Shown: positions 1,609 through 35,195, numbered from the stretch's first letter. The stretch is 64,000 nt of DNA from Thermoplasmata archaeon (GCA_021792255.1 JAJYUZ010000003.1:9405-73404); one strand, 5' to 3'. Notes: generated by a model from the letters alone, not told the origin. A program made the numbers and translations.

Positions 1609-4600
1609 GTGGACTTGATGGATTCAACAAGCAGAATTAAGGCTCTGACAAATTCAGTGAGAAACATGAGCTCGGAATCAAAGACCGGAATCGTTCTTGC
1701 GATAACGTTCTTCTTTTCCCTGTTCCTCAGCCTGTTCTTCGTGATAGGTCCTGCGGTCAAGGCGGATTACGCAGTTTCAGGAGGATCAGATGCATACTAC
1801 AACATGAGAATTGTTCAGTACATACTGTCCACCCATCATCAGTTATTGTTTGATCCGGGATTGAATTACCCGGTAGGTCTGGAAAACCCTAGACCACCCT
1901 TCTTTCACTGGCTGATAGTTCTTCTAGGATACGCTTTCTCGCCATTCCTAGGAGGGGTCTACAAGTCGACCATGTCGATGTTCCTGGCAAGTACAGCCAT
2001 AGGAGGAGCTTTCATAGTCTTTCCTACCTACTTGCTCGGAAGGGAACTCTTTGGAAGCAAGGTCGGTGTAATTGCAGCAATCCTGGTGGCAATGTCCCCG
2101 CTGACTCTAATGAAGAGCATAGGCACCATCGGCCTATTCGATATATATACAGCCCTCTTTGGTCTCATGTTCATATACTTCTTCCTGAAGGCAGTAAACA
2201 CATTCAGGTTCGATGCGCAGGATTCTCCTATCATAAAGAGCATACTTCAGTCAATCAAGAGCAACCCCATTTCCATTACTTATTCACTCCTGGCCGGAGT
2301 CTCTTTGGCAGGCTCAATGCTCACCTGGGTTGGTTCCATCTCCCTTATGGTCATACTGGCAGGTGCGGCAGTAATCCAGCTGGCCATCTTTGCCATTAAG
2401 AAGAAGAGCGCCCTTTCAATCTTCGTTTCAAACCTGTTCTTCGGATCTGCATTCGTGATAGCTTTCCCCTGGTACTATATAACCAACTTCGTTGCCGTCA
2501 GATTCGAGTATCCCCTGATAATGTGGGCAGCACTTTTTATTGCTTCGGTTTACTTCCTGTTGCTACAGAAACGTCCCTGGCTTCTGTCGATAGGATTTTT
2601 CATCCTAGCGGCTGCGGCCGCTATATTGCTAATGTACAAGTTTGACAGAGCCATCATTTCCTCCATACTTTCCGGCCAGCACTATTTCATCAAGAACAAG
2701 ATATACGACACAATTGCAGAAGCCCAGCCGCTCTCACTAGGAGAGGATCTGTTGGAGTTCGGAGCGTTCACGTTCTTCGCATCCTTCATAGGCATAGCCT
2801 ACCTTGTATACAAGTGGGTCAGAACCGCTACATTCAACATGACTATAGCTGTGCTCTATTTCGGTGGGATCATCGTCATAAGTATGATAGCTTCCAAGTT
2901 CCTTTACTTTGGAGCTACCGCAGCTTCCATTCTAACGGGATACATTCTCGTGAGGGCATTCGAACTTCTATCGTTCAAAGAGGCAATCGAAAAATCGAGA
3001 GGAAGATCCATCAGGACTGCACTCAGGAAAGAAATCAAATTTGCTCATTATGCGACGATCCTGATAGTCGTATTCCTCCTTATAGTCCCAACAACGTTCT
3101 ACGCTGTGGATTCTGCTATACCCTACAACAACAAGACTGCTTATGATAAGCAGCTGTACAACGACACCCCCTCATTCCTGAGACCCGCCAATTACACCGC
3201 ACCGTATTATCTCGGAGCATTTGGAGCGAGCCTCGCTACACCCAATCAACCATGGGGAAGAGCACTGACTTGGTTCCAGAATCAAGACGCCCAGCTTCCG
3301 CCTAGCGAACGCCCAGCATTCACATCGTGGTGGGATTACGGATTCCAAACGATAGAGCAGGGTGGTCACCCAGTGATGGCAGACAACTTCCAGGACGGAG
3401 TCTATCCCGCTGCTCAGATTTTACTGGCGCAGAACGAGAGCGAAATATTGTCCGTCTGGATCACAAGGATGCTCTACAACTATTCCGTAGCCGGAGACCT
3501 AAATAATTCATCGCTGATCTCGGTCCTCCAGCAATATTTAGGACAGACTGGAGAGACCCAGGTTATGAGTTATGAGACGAACCCTCAGAGCTACCTCGCT
3601 CAGGTATACGCGGACCCTTCTTACTATGGAGAACACTCTTCATCTATCCAGGGTGGGGATCTCATTTACATCCTCCTGGAGCACTACCTGACTAACACGT
3701 ATTCCCTGAATACTCTCATAAACTTGTATTCTGCAATTGAACAGTTGATGAACAAGGACATGAGCTACATCGCAGTGGACTACAGTCTTTTCCCGTTCAA
3801 TGGAACGAATACCGGAATATTCTACGCTCCCTCATATCTCGGGGACTTCCCGTATGCCAATGCCTCAGGGGAAATAATCCCGACAGAGTTCTACACAATC
3901 AACGTGACGGACACATCTGGAAACACCTATTCTCTTCAGACGTTTCCCTCGGGAGATACTGCTGCTAGCTACAGCATAAGTTACACGTCTGCATTCTACA
4001 ACAGTACGATTTACAGGGCATTCATCGGTTACCCGCCAAGTGCGATCGGATCATCTGGCGGCATACCGGGATTCACGTCCAACCTCACTTCCTACCCTGC
4101 GATGCAGGGCTGGGGACTATCCAATTTCGAGCTCGTCTACAAGACGATCCTCTGGAATCCTTACACGGACTACCAGAACCACACTTCCGCATGGAAGACC
4201 GTCTCGCTAGAACAGGGATATACGTACATGAAGAACCACGATGGAACGGTCGACCTGTTTCCTCCTGCTTCCGTTCTTTCTAACGACGTCGTCTTCCTCC
4301 AGTACTATCCTGGTGCAATAGTTAACGGAAGAGTGACCAATACGAATGGCCAACCCATAGAGGGAGTCAGGGTCACGCTCACTGATCAGTACGGAATTCC
4401 GCACCAGACAGTTCTCACTAACGCAACGGGATATTATTCCATATATGCGGTCGCAGGAAACGACACCGTCACATACTCGACAGGAGCTCTAAACTCTCTT
4501 TACATGCTTGGCAACAAATCCCTTGGTTATTACAATGTGACTATTTCAGAGGCTCAAGCAAACAGAGATAGCTACAGTAACTACGGCCTCCCGACTTGGA

Positions 4601-7600
4601 ATATCACGCACAATTTGGTCGTCAACTCGACTCAAGTGAATGGCGTAGTATTCTTGAACCTTGCACGGAGCGGTGTGTACACAAGCACCGACCAAACGGT
4701 ACAGGGAACAGTCAGGTACCACAACTCCACTTACAACATCACGTACGTGACCAACACAATGCAGAATGGAAGTTACCAAATCTCCAATGTCGCACCCTAC
4801 AATTACAAGATTTCGGTTAATGCGTATGGTCACTGGTACAACAATACAACATCAGTCACCCCTTCCTCGACTACGGTTTCAAAGGACATTCCACTTACCT
4901 ATGGCATCATGAATGCCAGCCTGCAGTCAGGAGTATCTCTTGCATCGGGAGCCCGGATATCCTTCAGCAGAGGGAATTATTCGGTGACTTACAACCTGAC
5001 CCAAGTTGATCAGGCGTACTATCTGCCTACTGGCATCTATAACATCAGTGCGTTCAATGCAGGCGAATGGGACAATTTCACCGCCCAGCTAACGAACAAC
5101 AGTACCGCAGACCTGAATCTGGCATTCTCTACGCAGTACAGAATAACTTTCGTGACTGATGTGAATGGCCAGCCTGTCAGCGCTCTGGTGGAGATAAACA
5201 ACGGGACGTCGCTTACCCAGTCGATACAGACCGACTCGAACGGAATTGGTTATTTCAGCACTCCAGCTTCGACAAATCTCGTCTATTCGGATGTGTTCTA
5301 TAACGGTCATTATTATTCGGCTACACAAATCCTGAACGTCACGGGAGCAGCGACTGTTGTGCTAAGTCTTCAGTATTCTTACCTAGTTTCTGGTCAGTAC
5401 AAGGTGAACAATGTTGGACAGAACAATACGGACATAGCCATAGCTGGAAACAATTCCTTCACCTTACTTTTCGGTAACAAGACCGGCTACTTCTCGGCAT
5501 ATCTCCCTGCTGGTGAGTACAGCATTGTGACATATTCCCACTACAACTTTTCGCTCTATGTCGCTTCTCAGGAATTCACTGTAAGCGACCAGAACGTGTA
5601 CCTCAGACTAAACGGATATCACGGGTACCAACTGAACGGTACTGTTTCGTACGACAAGAAATCCGTAAAGGGCCTAGTGACCTCTCAGCTCAACGGCAGA
5701 TCCTACTTCGATTACTTTGATACGGGTGGTGCCTATTCCATATATCTGCAGAATGGAGTTACCTTAGGCAGCCTGAATTTCATAACACCTGGCTATTCTG
5801 TGGAATCGTACACCTCGACCAATATCCAGCTGAAAGTTCTCCCGGTAGACGTTTCTGTATATGCGTCCTATTCTGGAAGCGTCTCACTCACTCTCTACCT
5901 GAACGGTTCCACGGACTACACGGCGACAGGAACACACTACTTCAATCTCTCGATAAATCCCGGGAATTATACTGTGGCATTCTCTCACCCGGGGACCACG
6001 ACATCATCCACCCTGATGGGCATAGACGTAGTCGCGGGAGAGGCGATTCAGCCCTTCTATACTGACCTATACATTAAGGCAAAGCTGTCAGTGGATCCGG
6101 TCCAGAAGGTCTACATATTCAAGAATGGTGAACTTGTTTCTTCCACACTGAACAACACTCTGCTGATCGGCACCTACACCATTTACTCGTATAGTGGTGA
6201 CACCGCTGCACTCGAGACCATTAATCTCACAAAGGATACGGTAGTTACTCTAAACTTCCAGACCGCTTACAACGTCACGCTCGTCACCACCCCCAACGGC
6301 AATGTCGGCATTGCCTCTCAGTACGGAAACATTACCTGGCAGGGCTCCGTTCTTCTTCCAGGTGGTACCTACGACTTCACTCTGGATAAGGCTTACAATT
6401 CCACCTACGCCTACTATGCATCTTATTCACTGTACCTTTCTTCTTCACAGACCGTGACGCTTTCTGGGACCTTGAAAGAAGTGCTTTATGCCGCTTCGAT
6501 ACAGTATCACTACAGCGGATCATCCGTCACGACAGGCACTTATTATATTCAGGGCACGAAGAACGTCACAGGAAGCTTCAATTCTGGACCTGTTTCCCTG
6601 CCCAACGGGAACTATTCGATATACGCCACTTCCGGGAACTATGCGTACTTCGGTGGATTCAGCGTATCATCCTCGAACCTGAGTCTGAACTTCACCCTTC
6701 AGAGGGCATATCCTCTCAACTACGGAACTTACCTCAATAACTCGTCCTACAAGGGAATGGTATCGATCCAGGACGGTGTGAACTATTACCTTCCACCTAG
6801 CGGAATAATCAACCTGCCGAACGGCACTTACGTCTTTAACGGTTCGACCAGATACACCTACTATGGATATTTGGACAACTACTCCATCGATCAGACGATC
6901 AGGGTTTCTGGCATAAGTTCTGCCACCCTTTCGTTCAAGATTGATTCCATAGTGAAGGTGACATTCTATGCAGAATCAGGTAGCCCAGTCCTAGCAAACA
7001 ACCAGTCGATCACTTTTCCACTTCTCATCACCAGCCACTCCAACATTCCCCTAAATTTCACGATCGGTAATTCTTCGTCCTTCTACGTCAGCGGCAACAG
7101 CACGACCCTTGCACCCTATTCTTCCGGAGAAACTAACGTCACCATTAAGGTCCCGAGATATCAGTTCGCGGGTAACAACTCCGTCTACGTTAGGATATAC
7201 TACGGAGACACCTACTACAACGTAAACGTCAACATCACCGTATCCCCCGTCCTGAGCATCACCGCCACTGCAAAGAACAATTCAGGCAAGATCGTCGGAG
7301 ACCTGCTGGAAATTCCTTGGAAACTGTTCAACAATGGAAACACGAAGACGTACGTCAATGCGACGATCATGAACTCCGCGCAACTCAAGGCAAATGGCAT
7401 CAACGTGACGTTCAATAACTCTGTGACCTATTCCACTAAGATCAACTCAAATTCGAACGAATCCACGTACTTGATAATTAATTCCACGTCTGGGAAGACA
7501 ATCTCCGGAACCATCGTTTCCATCCTTCTATCGTACGGAAACACCACGAAGATTGTGACAGTTAAACTGACCGCTCCAGAACTTTCGGTCAGTAAGGCTT

Positions 7601-7731
7601 CGGGAACTGGACACGATCTCTCCGCTTATTCTCCAATGACCCAGGATTACTACATATACGCCTTCTCTGCTTTCATCGTGCTTGCGATGGTTGCAGTCAT
7701 GCTGATTTTCAGAAGGAGGTTCAGAACGTGA
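1609..7731 (+). CDS. aglB: archaeal oligosaccharyltransferase AglB (STT3 family) with a giant C-terminal extension (2,040 aa)
   Basis: Multi-TM N-terminal region with the EL1 acidic motif GSDAYYNMR. Canonical WWDYG catalytic motif at 3328..3342 (SWWDYGFQ). After about residue 900 there are repeated CarboxypepD_reg-like segments (GRVTNTNGQPIEGVRVTLTDQYG...TNATGYYSI) and a CARDB-like segment. C-terminal TM helix YIYAFSAFIVLAMVAVMLIF followed by RRRFRT. The ORF is uninterrupted. Confidence 0.85.
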   Translation: MDLMDSTSRIKALTNSVRNMSSESKTGIVLAITFFFSLFLSLFFVIGPAVKADYAVSGGSDAYYNMRIVQYILSTHHQLLFDPGLNYPVGLENPRPPFFHWLIVLLGYAFSPFLGGVYKSTMSMFLASTAIGGAFIVFPTYLLGRELFGSKVGVIAAILVAMSPLTLMKSIGTIGLFDIYTALFGLMFIYFFLKAVNTFRFDAQDSPIIKSILQSIKSNPISITYSLLAGVSLAGSMLTWVGSISLMVILAGAAVIQLAIFAIKKKSALSIFVSNLFFGSAFVIAFPWYYITNFVAVRFEYPLIMWAALFIASVYFLLLQKRPWLLSIGFFILAAAAAILLMYKFDRAIISSILSGQHYFIKNKIYDTIAEAQPLSLGEDLLEFGAFTFFASFIGIAYLVYKWVRTATFNMTIAVLYFGGIIVISMIASKFLYFGATAASILTGYILVRAFELLSFKEAIEKSRGRSIRTALRKEIKFAHYATILIVVFLLIVPTTFYAVDSAIPYNNKTAYDKQLYNDTPSFLRPANYTAPYYLGAFGASLATPNQPWGRALTWFQNQDAQLPPSERPAFTSWWDYGFQTIEQGGHPVMADNFQDGVYPAAQILLAQNESEILSVWITRMLYNYSVAGDLNNSSLISVLQQYLGQTGETQVMSYETNPQSYLAQVYADPSYYGEHSSSIQGGDLIYILLEHYLTNTYSLNTLINLYSAIEQLMNKDMSYIAVDYSLFPFNGTNTGIFYAPSYLGDFPYANASGEIIPTEFYTINVTDTSGNTYSLQTFPSGDTAASYSISYTSAFYNSTIYRAFIGYPPSAIGSSGGIPGFTSNLTSYPAMQGWGLSNFELVYKTILWNPYTDYQNHTSAWKTVSLEQGYTYMKNHDGTVDLFPPASVLSNDVVFLQYYPGAIVNGRVTNTNGQPIEGVRVTLTDQYGIPHQTVLTNATGYYSIYAVAGNDTVTYSTGALNSLYMLGNKSLGYYNVTISEAQANRDSYSNYGLPTWNITHNLVVNSTQVNGVVFLNLARSGVYTSTDQTVQGTVRYHNSTYNITYVTNTMQNGSYQISNVAPYNYKISVNAYGHWYNNTTSVTPSSTTVSKDIPLTYGIMNASLQSGVSLASGARISFSRGNYSVTYNLTQVDQAYYLPTGIYNISAFNAGEWDNFTAQLTNNSTADLNLAFSTQYRITFVTDVNGQPVSALVEINNGTSLTQSIQTDSNGIGYFSTPASTNLVYSDVFYNGHYYSATQILNVTGAATVVLSLQYSYLVSGQYKVNNVGQNNTDIAIAGNNSFTLLFGNKTGYFSAYLPAGEYSIVTYSHYNFSLYVASQEFTVSDQNVYLRLNGYHGYQLNGTVSYDKKSVKGLVTSQLNGRSYFDYFDTGGAYSIYLQNGVTLGSLNFITPGYSVESYTSTNIQLKVLPVDVSVYASYSGSVSLTLYLNGSTDYTATGTHYFNLSINPGNYTVAFSHPGTTTSSTLMGIDVVAGEAIQPFYTDLYIKAKLSVDPVQKVYIFKNGELVSSTLNNTLLIGTYTIYSYSGDTAALETINLTKDTVVTLNFQTAYNVTLVTTPNGNVGIASQYGNITWQGSVLLPGGTYDFTLDKAYNSTYAYYASYSLYLSSSQTVTLSGTLKEVLYAASIQYHYSGSSVTTGTYYIQGTKNVTGSFNSGPVSLPNGNYSIYATSGNYAYFGGFSVSSSNLSLNFTLQRAYPLNYGTYLNNSSYKGMVSIQDGVNYYLPPSGIINLPNGTYVFNGSTRYTYYGYLDNYSIDQTIRVSGISSATLSFKIDSIVKVTFYAESGSPVLANNQSITFPLLITSHSNIPLNFTIGNSSSFYVSGNSTTLAPYSSGETNVTIKVPRYQFAGNNSVYVRIYYGDTYYNVNVNITVSPVLSITATAKNNSGKIVGDLLEIPWKLFNNGNTKTYVNATIMNSAQLKANGINVTFNNSVTYSTKINSNSNESTYLIINSTSGKTISGTIVSILLSYGNTTKIVTVKLTAPELSVSKASGTGHDLSAYSPMTQDYYIYAFSAFIVLAMVAVMLIFRRRFRT
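7715..7720 (+). promoter_or_regulatory. Shine-Dalgarno-like site for the gene downstream of aglB
   Basis: GGAGGT lies 7 nt upstream of GTG 7728. The GTG overlaps the aglB TGA stop (GTGA), implying translational coupling. Confidence 0.35.
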
Positions 7732-8489
7732 GGACTCTACTAGCACTCATCTTAGTAGCGATGATCGTTGGTTCTGCTTTCGCCATCAACGCGGATGCGA
7801 GCGTAAGCACATCCGGGCCAGTCAGCGTGACAGGTCCCTCCGCAGTGGCTATAAACTCAACCTTCAATTACTCTGTGAGCGTCCAGCAAATCTTCAAGAA
7901 CTATTCTGCGACGATGATCGTTTCAGGTAACAACTTGACGGGTGCATCACCCATCTCTCCTGTTTACAAGAATAACATCACGAGCGGCCCGACGTACTTC
8001 TCAATTACAGCGCCCTCTGTCCAGACCACGATGTTCCTGATGTTCCAGGTCACTGGATACATGACGAACGGTGCGAAATTCTACTACAACCTGACCTCAA
8101 TGGTGACGGTCAAACAGTTCACCGTCCTCAGCGCCTCCATCAAGAATCCTTCACAGTTCGCGCTGAATTCGATAAACGTCACTTTTGAAGTCAACGGCAA
8201 ATACGTCGGTAGCAAGATCGTGAATATATCAAAGAATTCTACCCAAAATGTGACGTACCAGTGGGTATCCGGGCTTTTGCCGGCCGGAGTCTACACTGTC
8301 ACAGTACACGTCAACAATACCATAGTAGCACTGAAAAACGGGAATTCCTACACCTTCCAGATTCAGTCGGGTAATCCCTACATTGTTTACATCTACATAG
8401 GAGTCATAGCGTTTCTTGCGATAATAGTCGCAGTGACTTTCATCGCGAGCTATTACGCAAGGAAAAGGAGACCCAAGTGGAAAAAGTAA
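7728..8489 (+). CDS. secreted, C-terminally membrane-anchored, sequon-rich protein with a CARDB-like domain
   Basis: Signal-peptide-like N-terminus MRTLLALILVAMIVGSAFA. About 11 N-X-S/T sequons by eye. CARDB-like stretch NVTFEVNGKYVGSKIVNISKNSTQNVTYQW...GVYTVTVHVNN. C-terminal TM helix plus ARKRRPKWKK. Confidence 0.7.
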   Translation: MRTLLALILVAMIVGSAFAINADASVSTSGPVSVTGPSAVAINSTFNYSVSVQQIFKNYSATMIVSGNNLTGASPISPVYKNNITSGPTYFSITAPSVQTTMFLMFQVTGYMTNGAKFYYNLTSMVTVKQFTVLSASIKNPSQFALNSINVTFEVNGKYVGSKIVNISKNSTQNVTYQWVSGLLPAGVYTVTVHVNNTIVALKNGNSYTFQIQSGNPYIVYIYIGVIAFLAIIVAVTFIASYYARKRRPKWKK

Positions 8490-9029
8490 TCAGAGGATAT
8501 CGTTGCTGAGGGCAATGTTTATCGCAGAACCAGAGTCTTCTCCCCTCTTTATGGTCCTTGAGCTCCCCTTCTCGTCTACTATCTGGAGTCTGAAGTCCCT
8601 CAGGCTCCGGATGATCTGATTTCTGTAGCTTCTGTCGCCGTTTCCGACCTTTATGATGAAGCTCTTGTACTTGCACTCGTTGCTGACCCTAGAAACGTAT
8701 TCCCTTATTTCCCCCACGTCATAGATGCTCCTTCTGTCTATGACTACATTATTAGCGAGGGTGGCTATGCCTGGAGCCGGTCCGGGATCGATACCCACCA
8801 CGATCTTCTCAGAATTTCTAGACCTTATCAGTTGCTTCAACCTGAACTCTTCAATCCCCCTCGTCCTGAAGACGTTGTTTCCGCTTAGCTCCATATCTGT
8901 GAAGACCACATCAAATCCAGTGAAATTGTCCTCGGGGCCGAGAGAAGCAAAGGGTTCATTCATATCCTTGAGAAGAGTTAGTAGTCTATTGTAGACCCTG
9001 AAATCCTTTGTCATGACTCCTAACTTCAA
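8490..9029 (-). CDS. conserved hypothetical protein, possible RNase H-fold (RuvC/YqgF-like) nuclease
   Basis: The VVGIDPGPAPGIA motif resembles the first acidic-residue strand of RNase H-fold nucleases. The assignment is tentative. Confidence 0.4.
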   Translation of the reverse strand: MKLGVMTKDFRVYNRLLTLLKDMNEPFASLGPEDNFTGFDVVFTDMELSGNNVFRTRGIEEFRLKQLIRSRNSEKIVVGIDPGPAPGIATLANNVVIDRRSIYDVGEIREYVSRVSNECKYKSFIIKVGNGDRSYRNQIIRSLRDFRLQIVDEKGSSRTIKRGEDSGSAINIALSNDIL

Positions 9030-31257: not shown

Positions 31258-33031
31258 ATTATACCCGTGGCAGGAGATGATCTTTCAGAGGCTAGAACAG
31301 AGTGAAAGGAATTCTGTTATTCTCGAAAGTCCGACGGGATCTGGAAAGACTATCGCTATTCTCTATCACGTGATATCCAAATATCCGGATAGAAGGGTCG
31401 TCTTCCTTACCAGAACCAACTCTCAGGGAGAGAACTTGCTGAGAGAGGCTAGAAAACTCGGAATCAACAGGGTGATGACTTTTTTTGGGCGGGGAGAGAT
31501 GTGTCTCTACAAGAAGCAGGCATCCGAGATGTCACAGGGAACCCCGGAAGAACAGAGTAACTACTGCAGGTCGCTAGTCGAGAAGAACAAGAACGGAAAG
31601 GGGGGCTGCCCTTATGGAACCAATTATTATTCGGGATGGAAAAAGGGAATCATGTCGCAGGAGGACTTCCTCGAGCTAGGAAATGAAGACTACTGCCCCT
31701 ATTTCGCGCAAAAGAGACTAGCGACAGAATCCAACATCTTGGCTACTTCTTATTCATTCTTTCTTAACCCATTCATAAGAGAAAGATTCCTTGGGTGGAT
31801 GGAGGCAGAACTGAAAGACATAATTCTGATAGCAGATGAGGCACACAACATACCCGACCTTACGAGAAATCTCTTGTCGATGAGACTGACACACAACAGC
31901 CTTGCAAGCTGTTCAAAGGAAATAGATCAGTATGGCGATATTTTACTCAACAAAGTCAATGCTTCCTTCATAATCGATTCGGTGAGCGAATCCCTGACTG
32001 CGCTCCTGAAGGAAGGGGACAGAATTATAACTACCCAGGATGTGACGGAAGCGTTCATGGAATCCTTCCAGATGAATTCTCTGGACATCAAGAACCTCCT
32101 TTCTCAGCTTGCGAATTTTGGCCTCTCAATCAGAGAATCAAAAAGCATCGAAGGAAGACTGCCGAGGAGTTACATTTACAATGTATCAGTGCTGGCTTCC
32201 AGACTCATGGAAGATGATGAAAGCTACAGGGTGATTATTTCCCACAATGATGAACCCACTGGGATAAGTCTGATGAACCTCGAAACGTACGAAATTCTTC
32301 GCTTTTTCGGAAATACATATCGATCGTTCTTCATGTCCGGAACCGTATCTCCGTTCAATAAGTTCATCGATGAAACGGGGATCCAGAATCCTGAGAAAAT
32401 AATCGTCAAGGCAGATTACTTGGTGAAAAACCTGAAGGTCTTGTTCGTCGAAGATGTGACCTCGAAATTTACTCTCAAGGACGAATCGAGGGAAAGGATG
32501 AACTCTTACATTAGAGAAATAGTTGAAAAGGTCAAGAGGAACAAGATCATTTTTTGTACCTCGTACGAACAGCTTTCATCCTTTTTGGAGCTTGAAATGA
32601 ATGGAAGAATCTACTTCGAAAGGAAGGGGATGAGTAACGAAGAATTTCTCTCGCTACTGGCAAACTACAAGGAAAAAGGAGGAAATCTTTTCGCAGTGAT
32701 CAACGGGCGCATTTCCGAAGGAATAGATTTGCCAGGCAAGCTGGTCGAGGTAGCCGTCCTAGCAGGCATACCCTATCCTCCACCCTCACCGGAAACTTCT
32801 GCAATGGAACTCTTCTATGAAATGAAGTTCAGGAGGGGCTGGGAGTACGCCTACGATGCTGTAGCATCGACGAGGATGAGGCAGGCTATTGGAAGACTAA
32901 TAAGGAGCCCTGAAGAAAGAGGTGTAGCAGTAATCCTCGACTCCAGAGCCAGAAAATTCAGGGCAGATCTACCCAATCTCTACCTGAGTAAGGATGTCAT
33001 AGCAGATACGAACGAGTTTCTGGCTCAGTAG
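31229..33031 (+). CDS. xpd: XPD/Rad3-family Fe-S DNA helicase
   Basis: Walker A SPTGSGKT and DEAHN box. Four-Cys Fe-S domain (EMCLY...NYCRS...GGCPYG...DYCPYF). C-terminal helicase motifs QAIGRLIRS. The TTG start overlaps the upstream gene. Confidence 0.8.
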   Translation: MKDVPKFPYELYPWQEMIFQRLEQSERNSVILESPTGSGKTIAILYHVISKYPDRRVVFLTRTNSQGENLLREARKLGINRVMTFFGRGEMCLYKKQASEMSQGTPEEQSNYCRSLVEKNKNGKGGCPYGTNYYSGWKKGIMSQEDFLELGNEDYCPYFAQKRLATESNILATSYSFFLNPFIRERFLGWMEAELKDIILIADEAHNIPDLTRNLLSMRLTHNSLASCSKEIDQYGDILLNKVNASFIIDSVSESLTALLKEGDRIITTQDVTEAFMESFQMNSLDIKNLLSQLANFGLSIRESKSIEGRLPRSYIYNVSVLASRLMEDDESYRVIISHNDEPTGISLMNLETYEILRFFGNTYRSFFMSGTVSPFNKFIDETGIQNPEKIIVKADYLVKNLKVLFVEDVTSKFTLKDESRERMNSYIREIVEKVKRNKIIFCTSYEQLSSFLELEMNGRIYFERKGMSNEEFLSLLANYKEKGGNLFAVINGRISEGIDLPGKLVEVAVLAGIPYPPPSPETSAMELFYEMKFRRGWEYAYDAVASTRMRQAIGRLIRSPEERGVAVILDSRARKFRADLPNLYLSKDVIADTNEFLAQ

Positions 33032-33570
33032 GGGACGCTCTTCACCTTGAGCTTGTAACCAAGAATGTTGACCGCTCTATGAATTAGCGGAGTCACGATC
33101 AGTATTGCTAGAATCCCTTCCCACGGGAAGAGCACCATAGCACTCGGCCAAAATAAAAGGTAAAAAAACGCAAGCGCAAAAAGTGCAAACGGATACTGGT
33201 CAAGGAATAGGGACTCGGTGCCGGGAGCCCTTCCGATCCTTCTCTTTATGAAGGATCCTATCAAATCGCCCAGCATAGAGAAGAGGGAAAGCGCTGTTAC
33301 CATGTAAAGTATCGTGGCGAACTGATTTGAAAAAGTGAGTTCTCTGATGCCCAGGAATAAGAAGAGATAGTTCAGTAACAGTCCAATCAGGGATCCTGCC
33401 AGAATGCCACCCAGAAAACCCGACCAGGTCTTGTGATCTCCGAATATTCTCTTTCCGTTCCAGCTCCTTCCATTGTCTATAACGTAGTGCCCACCCGTTA
33501 TCACGGCGCTGGGGTTAGCTATGAACGCAGGTACAAAGAGGATGAGTGAAGAGATGAACGAAGGAATCAC
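33025..33570 (-). CDS. carS: CDP-archaeol synthase
   Basis: 181-aa polytopic protein of the DUF46/CarS type: FVPAFIANP...GDHKTWSGFLGG...GDLIGSFIKRR. Confidence 0.75.
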   Translation of the reverse strand: MIPSFISSLILFVPAFIANPSAVITGGHYVIDNGRSWNGKRIFGDHKTWSGFLGGILAGSLIGLLLNYLFLFLGIRELTFSNQFATILYMVTALSLFSMLGDLIGSFIKRRIGRAPGTESLFLDQYPFALFALAFFYLLFWPSAMVLFPWEGILAILIVTPLIHRAVNILGYKLKVKSVPY

Positions 33571-33653: not shown

Positions 33654-35195
33654 ATGGAAACCTCTAGGCCCGCGTGGATATTGCTGCAGAACGCATATGG
33701 ACTGGTAGTGGGGTATGTGACGTACCTTCTAATCCTTAGAGACGCGGGGGTTTCGGCCTTCGGAATATTCTCTTTCGCCCTTTCTTTTGGAATGATTTTT
33801 TCCTTTCTTTCGGACCTTGGTATCAACACTGCGCATACCAGAATGATAGCAGCAGGTAAGGACAGAAACGAGTACAACAACGCTCTGGTCTTCATGAAAT
33901 TCCTTCTTACTCTTTTGTACGTAGGAACGATCTTCGTTTCCATTATCGTGTGGACTCTCGTCCTTCACAAAGGGTTCGACTCTCCGTACGAATATCTCAG
34001 CATACTGCTGCTTCTTCCATACTTCATTTCTTTACCCTACATCCAGGCAAACAAGGCATTCTTCACGGGCACACTGGAAGCTGTCAAGGTTGCCGTTCCT
34101 CCGATGGTCGAGTCGACCGTAAGGCTCCTGGCGGTTGTAGTGTTGATTCACTACGACATATTCCACTTTGCATCTTCTGGGACGGGACTGATAAGGATGT
34201 CGTTGCTCATTGCTGCATCTTATTCGATATCCTATGTCGCTTATGCAATCCTAGGTTTCTGGATTGGCAGACCATGGAAACTCAGATTGCCACGTTATGA
34301 GACAATCAAGGATTACATGAAATATTCCTACCCTCTTACGGGGGCCGCTGTTGCGAGCGCAGTGTCCGCAAACGTCGCACAAATCTTGATTCAGTTATTC
34401 TACGAGTCTCACGCACTCGGGGGCTATGCCAGCGATCTGAGATTTATCCTGATGATCACCGGTTTTACTACGTCCGTAACTATACTGATCCTACCACTGC
34501 TCACAACAAAATTGGGTGATCACGTAGAGTATGGAAGGACCGTGGGACTGTCCGTCAAATACCTGACCGTGTTCATAACTCCCATCACCGTGTTTGCGAT
34601 CATATTTGCGTCCCCACTACTCAATCTCTGGACATCGCAGTTGCTTCCTTTTGCCATTGCACTCCAGCTGATGCTCATAGGATCTTGGTTTACCACAATG
34701 GCGATTCCATTCTGGACTCATTTCAATGCCACTGGTAAAACTGGTATTTCAGGCGCTTTGAACGTTTTTGGTTATCTCCTCATTATCATTTTCGATTTCA
34801 TTCTCATACCCAAGTACCTTCTTGGAGTCAGACTGGTGGGTTGGGGAGTGAACGGAGCCGCAGCGGCTATGTTGATCTCTGGCGTTTCAATTCTTTTGAC
34901 TTCAATGATCGCTCTCTTGAGGAAAATTAAGATCGACCTCACATTCCAGTCGATAAAGAGCATTCTGGTTTCAATCTTGCTCGGCGCCCTATTTTATTAC
35001 TTTCTGCATAGCTATCCTAGACTACCTACACTATGGATACTGACTCTATTCGTTGCATATACCCTCGCATACCTTGGGCTGATTTTGGTGACAAAGACTC
35101 TCTCGAGGCAAGAACTAATAGACATACTAGACATGATGAACCTGAAGAAACTCTTCAAGTATGGCATTCAAGAGTTGAAACACAGATCTCAATAG
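33654..35195 (+). CDS. MOP-superfamily (Wzx-like) oligo/polysaccharide flippase
   Basis: 513 aa with about 12-14 TM helices. N-terminal pattern LLQNAYGLVVGYVTYLLILRDAGVSAFGIFSFALS is typical of polysaccharide biosynthesis/flippase proteins. Confidence 0.7.
   Translation: METSRPAWILLQNAYGLVVGYVTYLLILRDAGVSAFGIFSFALSFGMIFSFLSDLGINTAHTRMIAAGKDRNEYNNALVFMKFLLTLLYVGTIFVSIIVWTLVLHKGFDSPYEYLSILLLLPYFISLPYIQANKAFFTGTLEAVKVAVPPMVESTVRLLAVVVLIHYDIFHFASSGTGLIRMSLLIAASYSISYVAYAILGFWIGRPWKLRLPRYETIKDYMKYSYPLTGAAVASAVSANVAQILIQLFYESHALGGYASDLRFILMITGFTTSVTILILPLLTTKLGDHVEYGRTVGLSVKYLTVFITPITVFAIIFASPLLNLWTSQLLPFAIALQLMLIGSWFTTMAIPFWTHFNATGKTGISGALNVFGYLLIIIFDFILIPKYLLGVRLVGWGVNGAAAAMLISGVSILLTSMIALLRKIKIDLTFQSIKSILVSILLGALFYYFLHSYPRLPTLWILTLFVAYTLAYLGLILVTKTLSRQELIDILDMMNLKKLFKYGIQELKHRSQ

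Follow-up and report, generated by a model that had tools for sequence, protein, structure and literature searches.

Why should an archaeal oligosaccharyltransferase (OST) carry, behind its catalytic part, a long chain of beta-sandwich domains and a second membrane anchor? The question is raised by the aglB gene at positions 1609..7731 (+) of a 64,000-nucleotide stretch from a Thermoplasmata archaeon (GCA_021792255.1 JAJYUZ010000003.1:9405-73404); the whole of this stretch is here called the window, and positions are counted from its first letter. A reading of the DNA made beforehand, to which we refer as the original prediction, took the product for a previously undescribed fusion of AglB with a sequon-rich beta-sandwich array pinned to the membrane at both ends, and proposed that the enzyme carried its own glycosylatable substrate or scaffold, which might serve a wall-less archaeon as a glycocalyx or pseudo-S-layer glycosylated by the enzyme itself. 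The fusion and the double anchoring agree with the hydropathy and AlphaFold2 analyses reported below. The giant form, on the other hand, is what AglB normally looks like throughout the phylum Thermoplasmatota, and databases already contain it. As for its meaning, we lean, by a small measure, towards the view that the sole OST of the phylum is fused to a conserved surface scaffold with a structural role independent of catalysis. We favor a defined scaffold of this kind because the architecture is fixed, a partner gene is conserved, and some orthologues have lost the catalytic motifs and keep the rest.

Distribution and fixed architecture of the giant AglB

Among 5.8 billion proteins searched, 73 relatives of the window AglB were found, down to 22% identity, and a genome scan with one genome per GTDB species gave at least 586 loci, of which the best 80 were examined and 63 had a complete gene. 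The complete relatives examined (63 loci, ~190 proteins) share one plan. All 63 complete loci encode proteins of 2,026-2,216 aa ending in a C-terminal hydrophobic segment followed by Arg/Lys, and nearly all of the 73 protein relatives measure 2,020-2,530 aa. The long tail is present in 73/73 homologues and 63/63 complete loci, and the C-terminal anchor in all but four of the 73, these being two contig-truncated fragments and two variants of 1,397 and ~1,287 aa. The loci span the I-plasma clade, Thermoplasmataceae, Ferroplasma, Cuniculiplasma, DHVE2/Aciduliprofundum, Methanomassiliicoccales and other Thermoplasmata. The window comes from an uncultured member of the I-plasma clade. I-plasma (locus L001) is the closest named relative, with 71% identity, and an identity of 75% is reached in one metagenome-assembled genome (MAG).

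When the search was started anew from a locus of Thermoplasmataceae, it led to cultured organisms. Orthologues were found in Thermoplasma volcanium GSS1 (TVG1271204, 2,076 aa, on a 1.58-Mb chromosome), Thermoplasma sp. Kam2015, Oxyplasma meridianum (2,113 aa, 1.68-Mb contig), Caldiplasma sukawensis (2,093 aa) and Cuniculiplasma sp. SKW3 (2,111 aa). The same search gave a protein of 2,108 aa, annotated as AglB, on a 1.96-Mb contig named Thermoplasmatales archaeon. In the orthologues from this search WWDYG lies near aa 580 and is followed by 54-73 sequons and by the anchor. Public orthologues bear automatic names such as STT3 domain protein, AglB, GT39 or CarboxypepD_reg protein. The rarity supposed at the outset has to be given up, since long fusions are common and annotated among the relatives and the form of ~2,100 aa is the rule across Thermoplasmatota (T. 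volcanium TVG1271204; I-plasma AglB in Yelton et al., 2013). In the same paper each acid-mine-drainage 'plasma' genome, that of I-plasma among them, has one AglB locus listed, and for this reason the giant is apparently the only AglB of these genomes. In the literature searched we found nothing on the length, tail or partner of Thermoplasmatota AglB, several key surveys without open access and the paper on the T. acidophilum glycoprotein lying outside this coverage. The apparent novelty lies in the fixed architecture, the coupled partner gene and the orthologues without catalytic motifs; the window gene itself is an ordinary orthologue of sequences that became public with the genome of T. volcanium.

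An alignment of 64 complete orthologues was used to follow conservation along the chain. Residues 1-960 are well conserved, the first tail domain with its GIPH motif included, and aa 961-2040 are weakly conserved yet near gap-free (gap fraction <=3%). The length from WWDYG to the end is 1,451-1,617 aa, with a standard deviation of 46. Judged from these alignments, the number of tail domains is fixed phylum-wide. Adhesin-like stalks and coat proteins normally differ in repeat number or length.

The reading frame is uninterrupted, as first described: 2,040 codons (6,123 nt) are open from GTG 1609 to the stop TGA at 7729-7731. As the start codon, ATG 1618 (three codons in; 2,037 aa) is more likely than GTG 1609, because a metagenome protein 96% identical to the window AglB (P0001) begins with MDSTSRIK. 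It could be argued that aglB was merged with a separate surface-protein gene through loss of a stop codon, through a frameshift or by an assembly join, and assemblies do contain broken copies of the gene, AglB being listed as 'split' in E-plasma and Fer2 (Yelton et al., 2013, supplementary file 12). However, the window frame is unbroken and its GC content is even (0.45-0.51), without a composition break. Moreover, the same continuous frame is found in more than 60 independent assemblies, including finished genomes of cultured species, and it is carried by the T. volcanium chromosome and by the Oxyplasma and Thermoplasmatales contigs mentioned above. The junction region itself (aa 841-960) is among the best-conserved parts of the protein. 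Such an artefact has a negligible probability and may be regarded as excluded by the conservation data.

Departures from the common plan were also seen. In a Cuniculiplasma MAG (L017, 9989-14755) the protein has 1,589 aa and no anchor; from this short version and the 'split' E-plasma and Fer2 genes it is evident that in MAGs the giant gene readily suffers frameshifts or mis-assembly. Two giant copies (L005 and L009, with 70% and 77% identity to the window protein) occur in the single MAG SRP271791_co2_51, and more likely represent two related populations in one bin than paralogues. Outside the main clades there are length variants of 1,287-1,397 aa (P0065-P0069), ~2,370-2,390 aa (P0055/56/60), 2,535 aa (P0063/64) and 3,149 aa (P0070). 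The short variants are devoid of the C-terminal anchor, and others present an N-terminal extension of ~200-380 aa before the AglB domain, or longer tails.

The partner gene

Immediately downstream of aglB lies a gene of 253 codons (7728..8489, +), whose GTG start overlaps the aglB stop by 4 nt (GTGA). The codons for the RRR at the end of AglB (AGAAGGAGG, 7711-7719) constitute a Shine-Dalgarno-like site 8 nt upstream of this GTG, and the translational coupling of the two genes suggests a 1:1 stoichiometry of their products. A partner-type open reading frame (ORF; 246-274 aa, signal-like segment, C-terminal transmembrane (TM) helix) was present 3' of aglB in 60/61 testable loci, its start overlapping the aglB stop most often by 4 nt. 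The window protein has a signal-like helix (aa 2-19), two beta-sandwiches (aa 32-129 and 132-212), a TM helix (aa 219-246) and a cytoplasmic RKRRPKWKK, and its structure model (predicted local distance difference test, pLDDT, 82) is that of a bitopic protein with two Ig-like domains.

The partner family has 190 representatives among 1.84e9 proteins, almost all of 245-285 aa and aligned end to end. Its named members are all 'hypothetical protein' and none has a Pfam domain; for the window partner a CARDB match stayed below threshold (20.8 bits vs 22.7). When the partner profile was compared by hhalign with the end of the AglB tail, a probability of 97% over 58 columns was obtained, which amounts to fold-level relatedness only. 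The same profile gave nothing significant against PDB sequences. A Foldseek search of the partner model against the PDB returned generic double sandwiches (the C-terminal barrels of factor XIII and transglutaminase, RbmA, WxLIP), with no OST subunit in the top 50. We regard the partner as a candidate OST or scaffold partner. In the I-plasma clade its C-terminus P-K-W-K-K (8460-8486, aa 245-253) is invariant, and it recurs in Thermoplasmatales and DHVE2 orthologues; such conservation of a short cytoplasmic stub is unusual.

Orthologues without catalytic motifs

Three orthologues from Ca. Methanoplasma-type Methanomassiliicoccales (P0071, P0072 and P0073) have lost all the catalytic motifs of AglB (D61, TIXE, WWDYG and NTGIFYAP; see the next section), as well as the GIPH of the first tail domain, and keep the 13-TM membrane domain, the beta tail and the C-terminal anchor. 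At the P0071 locus (L081, 6001-12470), the only motif-dead locus read, the partner gene is also kept with a -4 overlap, and the gene order is that of motif-intact Methanomassiliicoccales: rpoA2-L7Ae-NusA-rSAM-pyrF, then the aglB orthologue, then partner-translin-like-purD-cobW. In these three proteins the excess of sequons has gone, with forward:reverse motif counts of 27:22, 12:11 and 10:10. The retention of tail and anchor, and of the partner at L081, points to a scaffold role that does not depend on catalysis.

The N-terminal catalytic module

Profile matches, structure-linked alignments and motifs show that the N-terminal 900 residues of the window protein are an AglB homologue, within the AglB/STT3/PglB oligosaccharyltransferases (GT66). 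The NCBIfam model TIGR04154 (archaeal STT3) covers aa 28-616 with an E value of 4.6e-54 and 184 bits, below its 450-bit cut-off, and the Archaeoglobus fulgidus AglB-L of the PDB (3WAJ, 5GMY) aligns to aa 57-598 (E 3.6e-11 for 3WAJ). The STT3 model of Pfam (PF02516), by which the original prediction was to be judged, has no match on the window protein even at E<=1. Taken literally this would speak against the assignment, but it is outweighed by TIGR04154, by 3WAJ and by the relatives: among 17 diverse ones, Pfam STT3 matches 15 and AglB_core-like matches were found in 9.

Hydropathy and the alignment to the TM region of A. fulgidus AglB-L place the polytopic membrane domain (GT-C) at aa 24-505 (1678..3123, +). 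The first external-loop acidic motif, GSDAYYNMR (aa 59-67; 1783..1809, +), aligns to GGNDPWYYYR of 3WAJ. Its catalytic Asp D61 (in GGSDAYY) corresponds to D47 of 3WAJ and is invariant in the motif-intact family, and G59, D61 and Y64 are invariant across the 17 relatives. The TIXE motif of external loop 5 reads TIAE here as in 3WAJ (2710..2721, +; glutamate E371), with T368, I369 and E371 invariant among the relatives aligned. The extracellular catalytic core, recognized by motifs and conservation, extends over aa 506-900 (3124..4308, +) and holds GHPVMADNF, WWDYG (aa 574-578; 3328..3342, +), which is invariant in motif-intact relatives, and the near-invariant NTGIFYAP (aa 734-741; 3808..3831, +), which in the alignment occupies the place of the DK/MI motif, the builder of the Ser/Thr pocket. 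The original prediction had put WWDYG at exactly this position and had also named GSDAYYNMR.

Two motifs are atypical. At the second acidic motif, in general DxD, DxE or DxH, the window protein has L176-F177-D178 (2134..2142, +), aligned to D161-H162-H163 of 3WAJ, so that one Asp of this metal-binding site is kept, with a possible alignment shift of 2 residues. The motif is clade-specific: GLFDI(Y/F) in the I-plasma clade, GRMHTPE in Thermoplasmatales, and D-H-D (ADHDAF) in most of the family. NTGIFYAP, compared by sequence alignment only, fits neither DxxKxxx(M/I) nor MxxIxxx(I/V/W) cleanly. By homology, the first ~900 residues would act on exported proteins at the membrane's outer face, transferring a lipid-linked glycan to the asparagine of N-X-S/T. 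This step, with the GT-C membrane domain and the WWDYG core acting as an OST, is well supported, and the window AglB is likely to be catalytically competent.

The tail and the C-terminal anchor

The hydrophobic segments of the protein fall within aa 24-505, and then none occurs for ~1,500 residues until aa 2013-2038, which is followed by RRRFRT. We modeled aa 890-2040 with AlphaFold2 on an alignment of 44 sequences. The model is all-beta (mean pLDDT 85.5); it shows ~13 sandwich domains together with a disordered linker, and it ends in a helix (aa 2014-2039). The C-terminal TM helix is placed at aa 2015-2034 (7651..7710, +) by hydropathy and by the AlphaFold2 helix, and is present in all complete orthologues; the cytoplasmic RRRFRT is encoded at 7711..7728 (+). 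These results bear out the terminal helix with RRRFRT that had been read from the sequence.

The first tail domain is a CarboxypepD_reg domain (PF13620; aa 902-985; 4312..4563, +) with a conserved GIPH motif, and its Pfam score is 44.3 bits against a cut-off of 32.3 (match at aa 905-957). It is as conserved as the enzyme core (0.59 for the block aa 901-960), and CarboxypepD_reg matches 17/17 diverse relatives, with a best E value of 3.7e-60. It is also the only domain above the cut-off, two others scoring 18.7 and 13.6 bits. The twelve further beta-sandwich domains (aa 986-1995; 4564..7593, +), which contain 56 sequons, were assigned from the AlphaFold2 model, motif positions and sub-threshold Pfam matches, among them CarboxypepD_reg and SdrD_B; an (L)PxGxY signature is found in ~10 tail domains. 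Of the repeated CarboxypepD_reg/PEGA-like segments initially proposed, the ~13 sandwiches and the Pfam identity of the first are retained, while the others are below threshold or unmatched. The last two domains are E-set/CARDB-like by fold only. CARDB (PF07705) was found neither in the whole protein at E<=1 nor in the subsequences 6952-7290 and 7276-7600 at E<=10, and the CARDB-like module placed near 7250-7450 is reduced to a resemblance of fold.

A Pfam scan of the whole protein and seven sub-windows detected no enzyme domain in the tail. Self-BLAST of the tail did not find internal sequence repeats, which suggests that its domains are old and diverged rather than recent tandem copies. Neither was an archaeosortase/PGF-CTERM-type sorting signal seen, since no CTERM model in NCBIfam matches at E<=1 and there is no PGF-like motif before the TM helix. 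By analogy, the tail should be extracellular, because the established topology of AglB puts its C-terminal domain outside the cell, and the last helix would bring the chain back to the cytoplasm, which fits the basic C-terminal end. An ectodomain of ~1,450 residues would then leave the membrane and re-enter it as a closed loop.

Sequons and glycosylation

The window AglB contains 71 N-X-S/T sequons, 66 of them after WWDYG, where about 65 had been counted by eye. In the last 1,140 residues there are 56, compared with 25 expected from composition, and in the tail the reversed motif S/T-X-N occurs 20 times against these 56. For the window protein the forward:reverse ratio was counted as 65:24, and it is ~2 to 3 in most motif-intact members tested. 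In homologues of ~49% identity, sequons are kept in place in 59-66% of cases, compared with 25-35% for the reversed motif. On these figures, the sequons of the acidophile clades are under selection and the tail is very probably heavily N-glycosylated, as had been foreseen. N-glycosylation of membrane proteins has been reported in T. acidophilum (review PMC11407970).

The density of sequons in the window AglB is 4.5 per 100 aa, and it is 4.35 in the neighboring exported protein and ~0.4 in the cytosolic ORFs of the window. Since the adjacent exported protein is equally dense, the richness in sequons is a trait of the exoproteins of this organism and not of AglB in particular. In orthologues from Methanomassiliicoccales and other lineages the density is 0.5-2 per 100 aa. 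The window AglB has few charged residues, and S, T, N and Y are abundant in it.

The proposed scaffold and alternative explanations

The observations can be joined as follows: the tail, the anchor and the coupled partner would together make up a conserved scaffold outside the cell, belonging to its surface, which in acidophilic lineages would be densely N-glycosylated like other exoproteins. Such a scaffold may act as a spacer or ruler, a coat element or a docking platform. The original proposal, a tail that is mainly a self-glycosylated glycocalyx or pseudo-S-layer element replacing the wall in wall-less Thermoplasmata, would explain the strong enrichment and positional conservation of sequons in acidophile clades, the low-charge, S/T/N/Y-rich composition and the anchoring at both ends, and agrees with the N-glycosylation of T. 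acidophilum membrane proteins. Nevertheless, the same architecture is kept at the low densities of the other lineages and in the motif-dead orthologues without sequon excess, and the neighboring exported protein is as rich in sequons as AglB. A role as the enzyme's own substrate is, for these reasons, a poor account of why the tail exists. Nor does the form suit wall-less archaea in particular, for it is conserved in DHVE2/Aciduliprofundum and Methanomassiliicoccales and in lineages with reported or predicted S-layers: I-plasma was scored S-layer-positive ('Y') by Yelton et al., and A. boonei has predicted S-layer genes. Coat proteins, moreover, usually vary in length, and the giant AglB tail does not. 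We judge the glycocalyx proposal improbable. Another explanation, suggested by analogy, is that tail, C-terminal TM helix and partner are built-in accessory subunits serving catalysis through substrate capture or orientation, coupling to the Sec translocon or stability of the enzyme. The 1:1 stoichiometry suggested by the coupling, the conservation of the first tail domain at the level of the catalytic core and the fixed number of domains would all be expected of such subunits, and the non-catalytic subunits of the eukaryotic OST are likewise bitopic and beta-rich. But orthologues without any catalytic motif keep tail and anchor, and P0071 at L081 keeps the partner gene; past its first domain the tail is weakly conserved in sequence; thirteen sandwich domains would far exceed what is needed near an active site bound to a lipid-linked donor; and OST subunits were absent from the top 50 fold matches of the partner. 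We consider it rather unlikely that assistance to catalysis is what maintains these parts.

Several points weigh against the scaffold that we favor. The predicted template modelling score of the tail model is 0.43, and the geometry from domain to domain is not fixed by it. Foldseek of the tail against the PDB gave only generic Ig-like strings (hydin, alpha-2-macroglobulin, complement C5) with TM-scores of ~0.1, which speaks for a tail without known global architecture and without a hidden enzyme. Where A. fulgidus AglB has the metal ligand D161, the I-plasma clade has Leu, and for this reason full catalytic competence is an assumption. The loss of motifs was read at the giant orthologues alone, and those genomes may carry another OST elsewhere. 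The association of partner and AglB is deduced only from gene order and the start/stop overlap, and the partner profile search revealed no partner-giant AglB fusion among the 1.84e9 representatives. Finally, expression, abundance, glycopeptide or interaction data on any member of the family were not found in the literature searched. A stronger form of the scaffold view, in which AglB and partner are a double-anchored surface scaffold of two proteins that carries the OST only incidentally and whose structural function outlives the complete loss of glycosyltransferase activity in Ca. Methanoplasma-type lineages, is put forward only tentatively, as a possibility with clearly less than even chances.

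Comparison with known systems

The closest system of known structure is A. fulgidus AglB-L (PDB 3WAJ, 5GMY, 7E9S), with which the window AglB shares an alignable GT-C domain (aa 57-598), the first-loop Asp, TIXE, WWDYG and the extracellular core; the mechanism is presumably the same. The A. fulgidus protein has 875 aa and a soluble end, in contrast to the 2,040 aa, 13 extra domains, second anchor and coupled partner found here, and it differs as well in the second acidic motif, reduced in the window protein to one Asp, and in having a recognizable DK/MI motif where the window protein has NTGIFYAP. The public giant orthologues resemble the window AglB in length class, position of WWDYG, tail, basic-ended C-terminal TM helix and high sequon counts, and where the locus was examined, as for I-plasma (L001), the partner ORF lies downstream. 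The differences are confined to sequence (~37-75% identity) and to the clade form of the second acidic motif. We found no experimental characterization of them in the literature searched.

In the eukaryotic OST, ribophorin I/Ost1, OST48/Wbp1 and ribophorin II/Swp1 are bitopic, with luminal domains rich in beta structure and a TM helix at the C-terminus, and are stoichiometric with STT3. The partner resembles these non-catalytic subunits as a bitopic, beta-rich membrane protein, with no match of sequence or fold. Unlike in the eukaryotic complex, the main extra mass is here fused to the catalytic chain, and the module is kept in motif-dead orthologues. Eukaryotic NOMO offers another parallel: it has about a dozen sandwiches of the CarboxypepD_reg clan, a C-terminal TM helix and a short basic tail, but no enzyme domain, and it is anchored at a single end and located in the endoplasmic-reticulum lumen. 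The Pfam model NOMO_5th matches 3/17 relatives, and the window protein matches none of the NOMO models of Pfam; the likeness is one of clan, short of established homology. Archaeal S-layer and surface glycoproteins with C-terminal anchors are also large, sequon-rich and beta-rich, with a hydrophobic C-terminal hold. The giant AglB differs from them in having no N-terminal signal peptide, a 13-TM enzyme in front, no sorting-signal match and a length that is fixed phylum-wide.

Genomic neighborhood

Convergent to the partner gene, a 179-aa cytosolic ORF (8490-9029, -) has a GIDPG motif and a weak DUF460 match, and homologues occupy the same position in 33/80 loci, DHVE2 and Thermoplasmatales included. 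The divergent upstream gene (810-1325, -) encodes 171 aa, in which a zinc ribbon at the N-terminus, a linker rich in Gln and two or three TM segments are recognized; of the 80 loci, L009 alone has it conserved. No agl gene cluster was found beside aglB within the window. The sole other glycan-pathway candidate seen there, 26 kb from aglB, is a Polysacc_synt gene (33654-35195, +; 513 aa, 13 TM segments, Wzx/AglR-like flippase) that adjoins a CDP-archaeol synthase gene (33025-33570, -). Scans of the window with Rfam and with bacterial-type promoter and terminator models gave nothing useful.

Implications

Archaeal and bacterial OSTs have been treated as single-subunit, soluble-ended enzymes, and only eukaryotes were thought to add membrane-anchored, beta-rich partners around STT3. 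A whole archaeal phylum uses an OST 2.3 times longer than A. fulgidus AglB-L, with 13 additional domains, predicted to re-enter the membrane and to be co-translated with a partner. If the association with the partner and the structural role are true, they would change the view of how OSTs have evolved and of the cell surface of Thermoplasmatota, which is poorly understood. Should the scaffold indeed be what carries the OST, it would be the first case among archaeal OSTs in which a partner subunit is obligatory and the enzyme moonlights in a structural role. The phylum is notable for cell walls that are reduced or missing, and such a scaffold would represent a phylum-wide structural element of its envelope.

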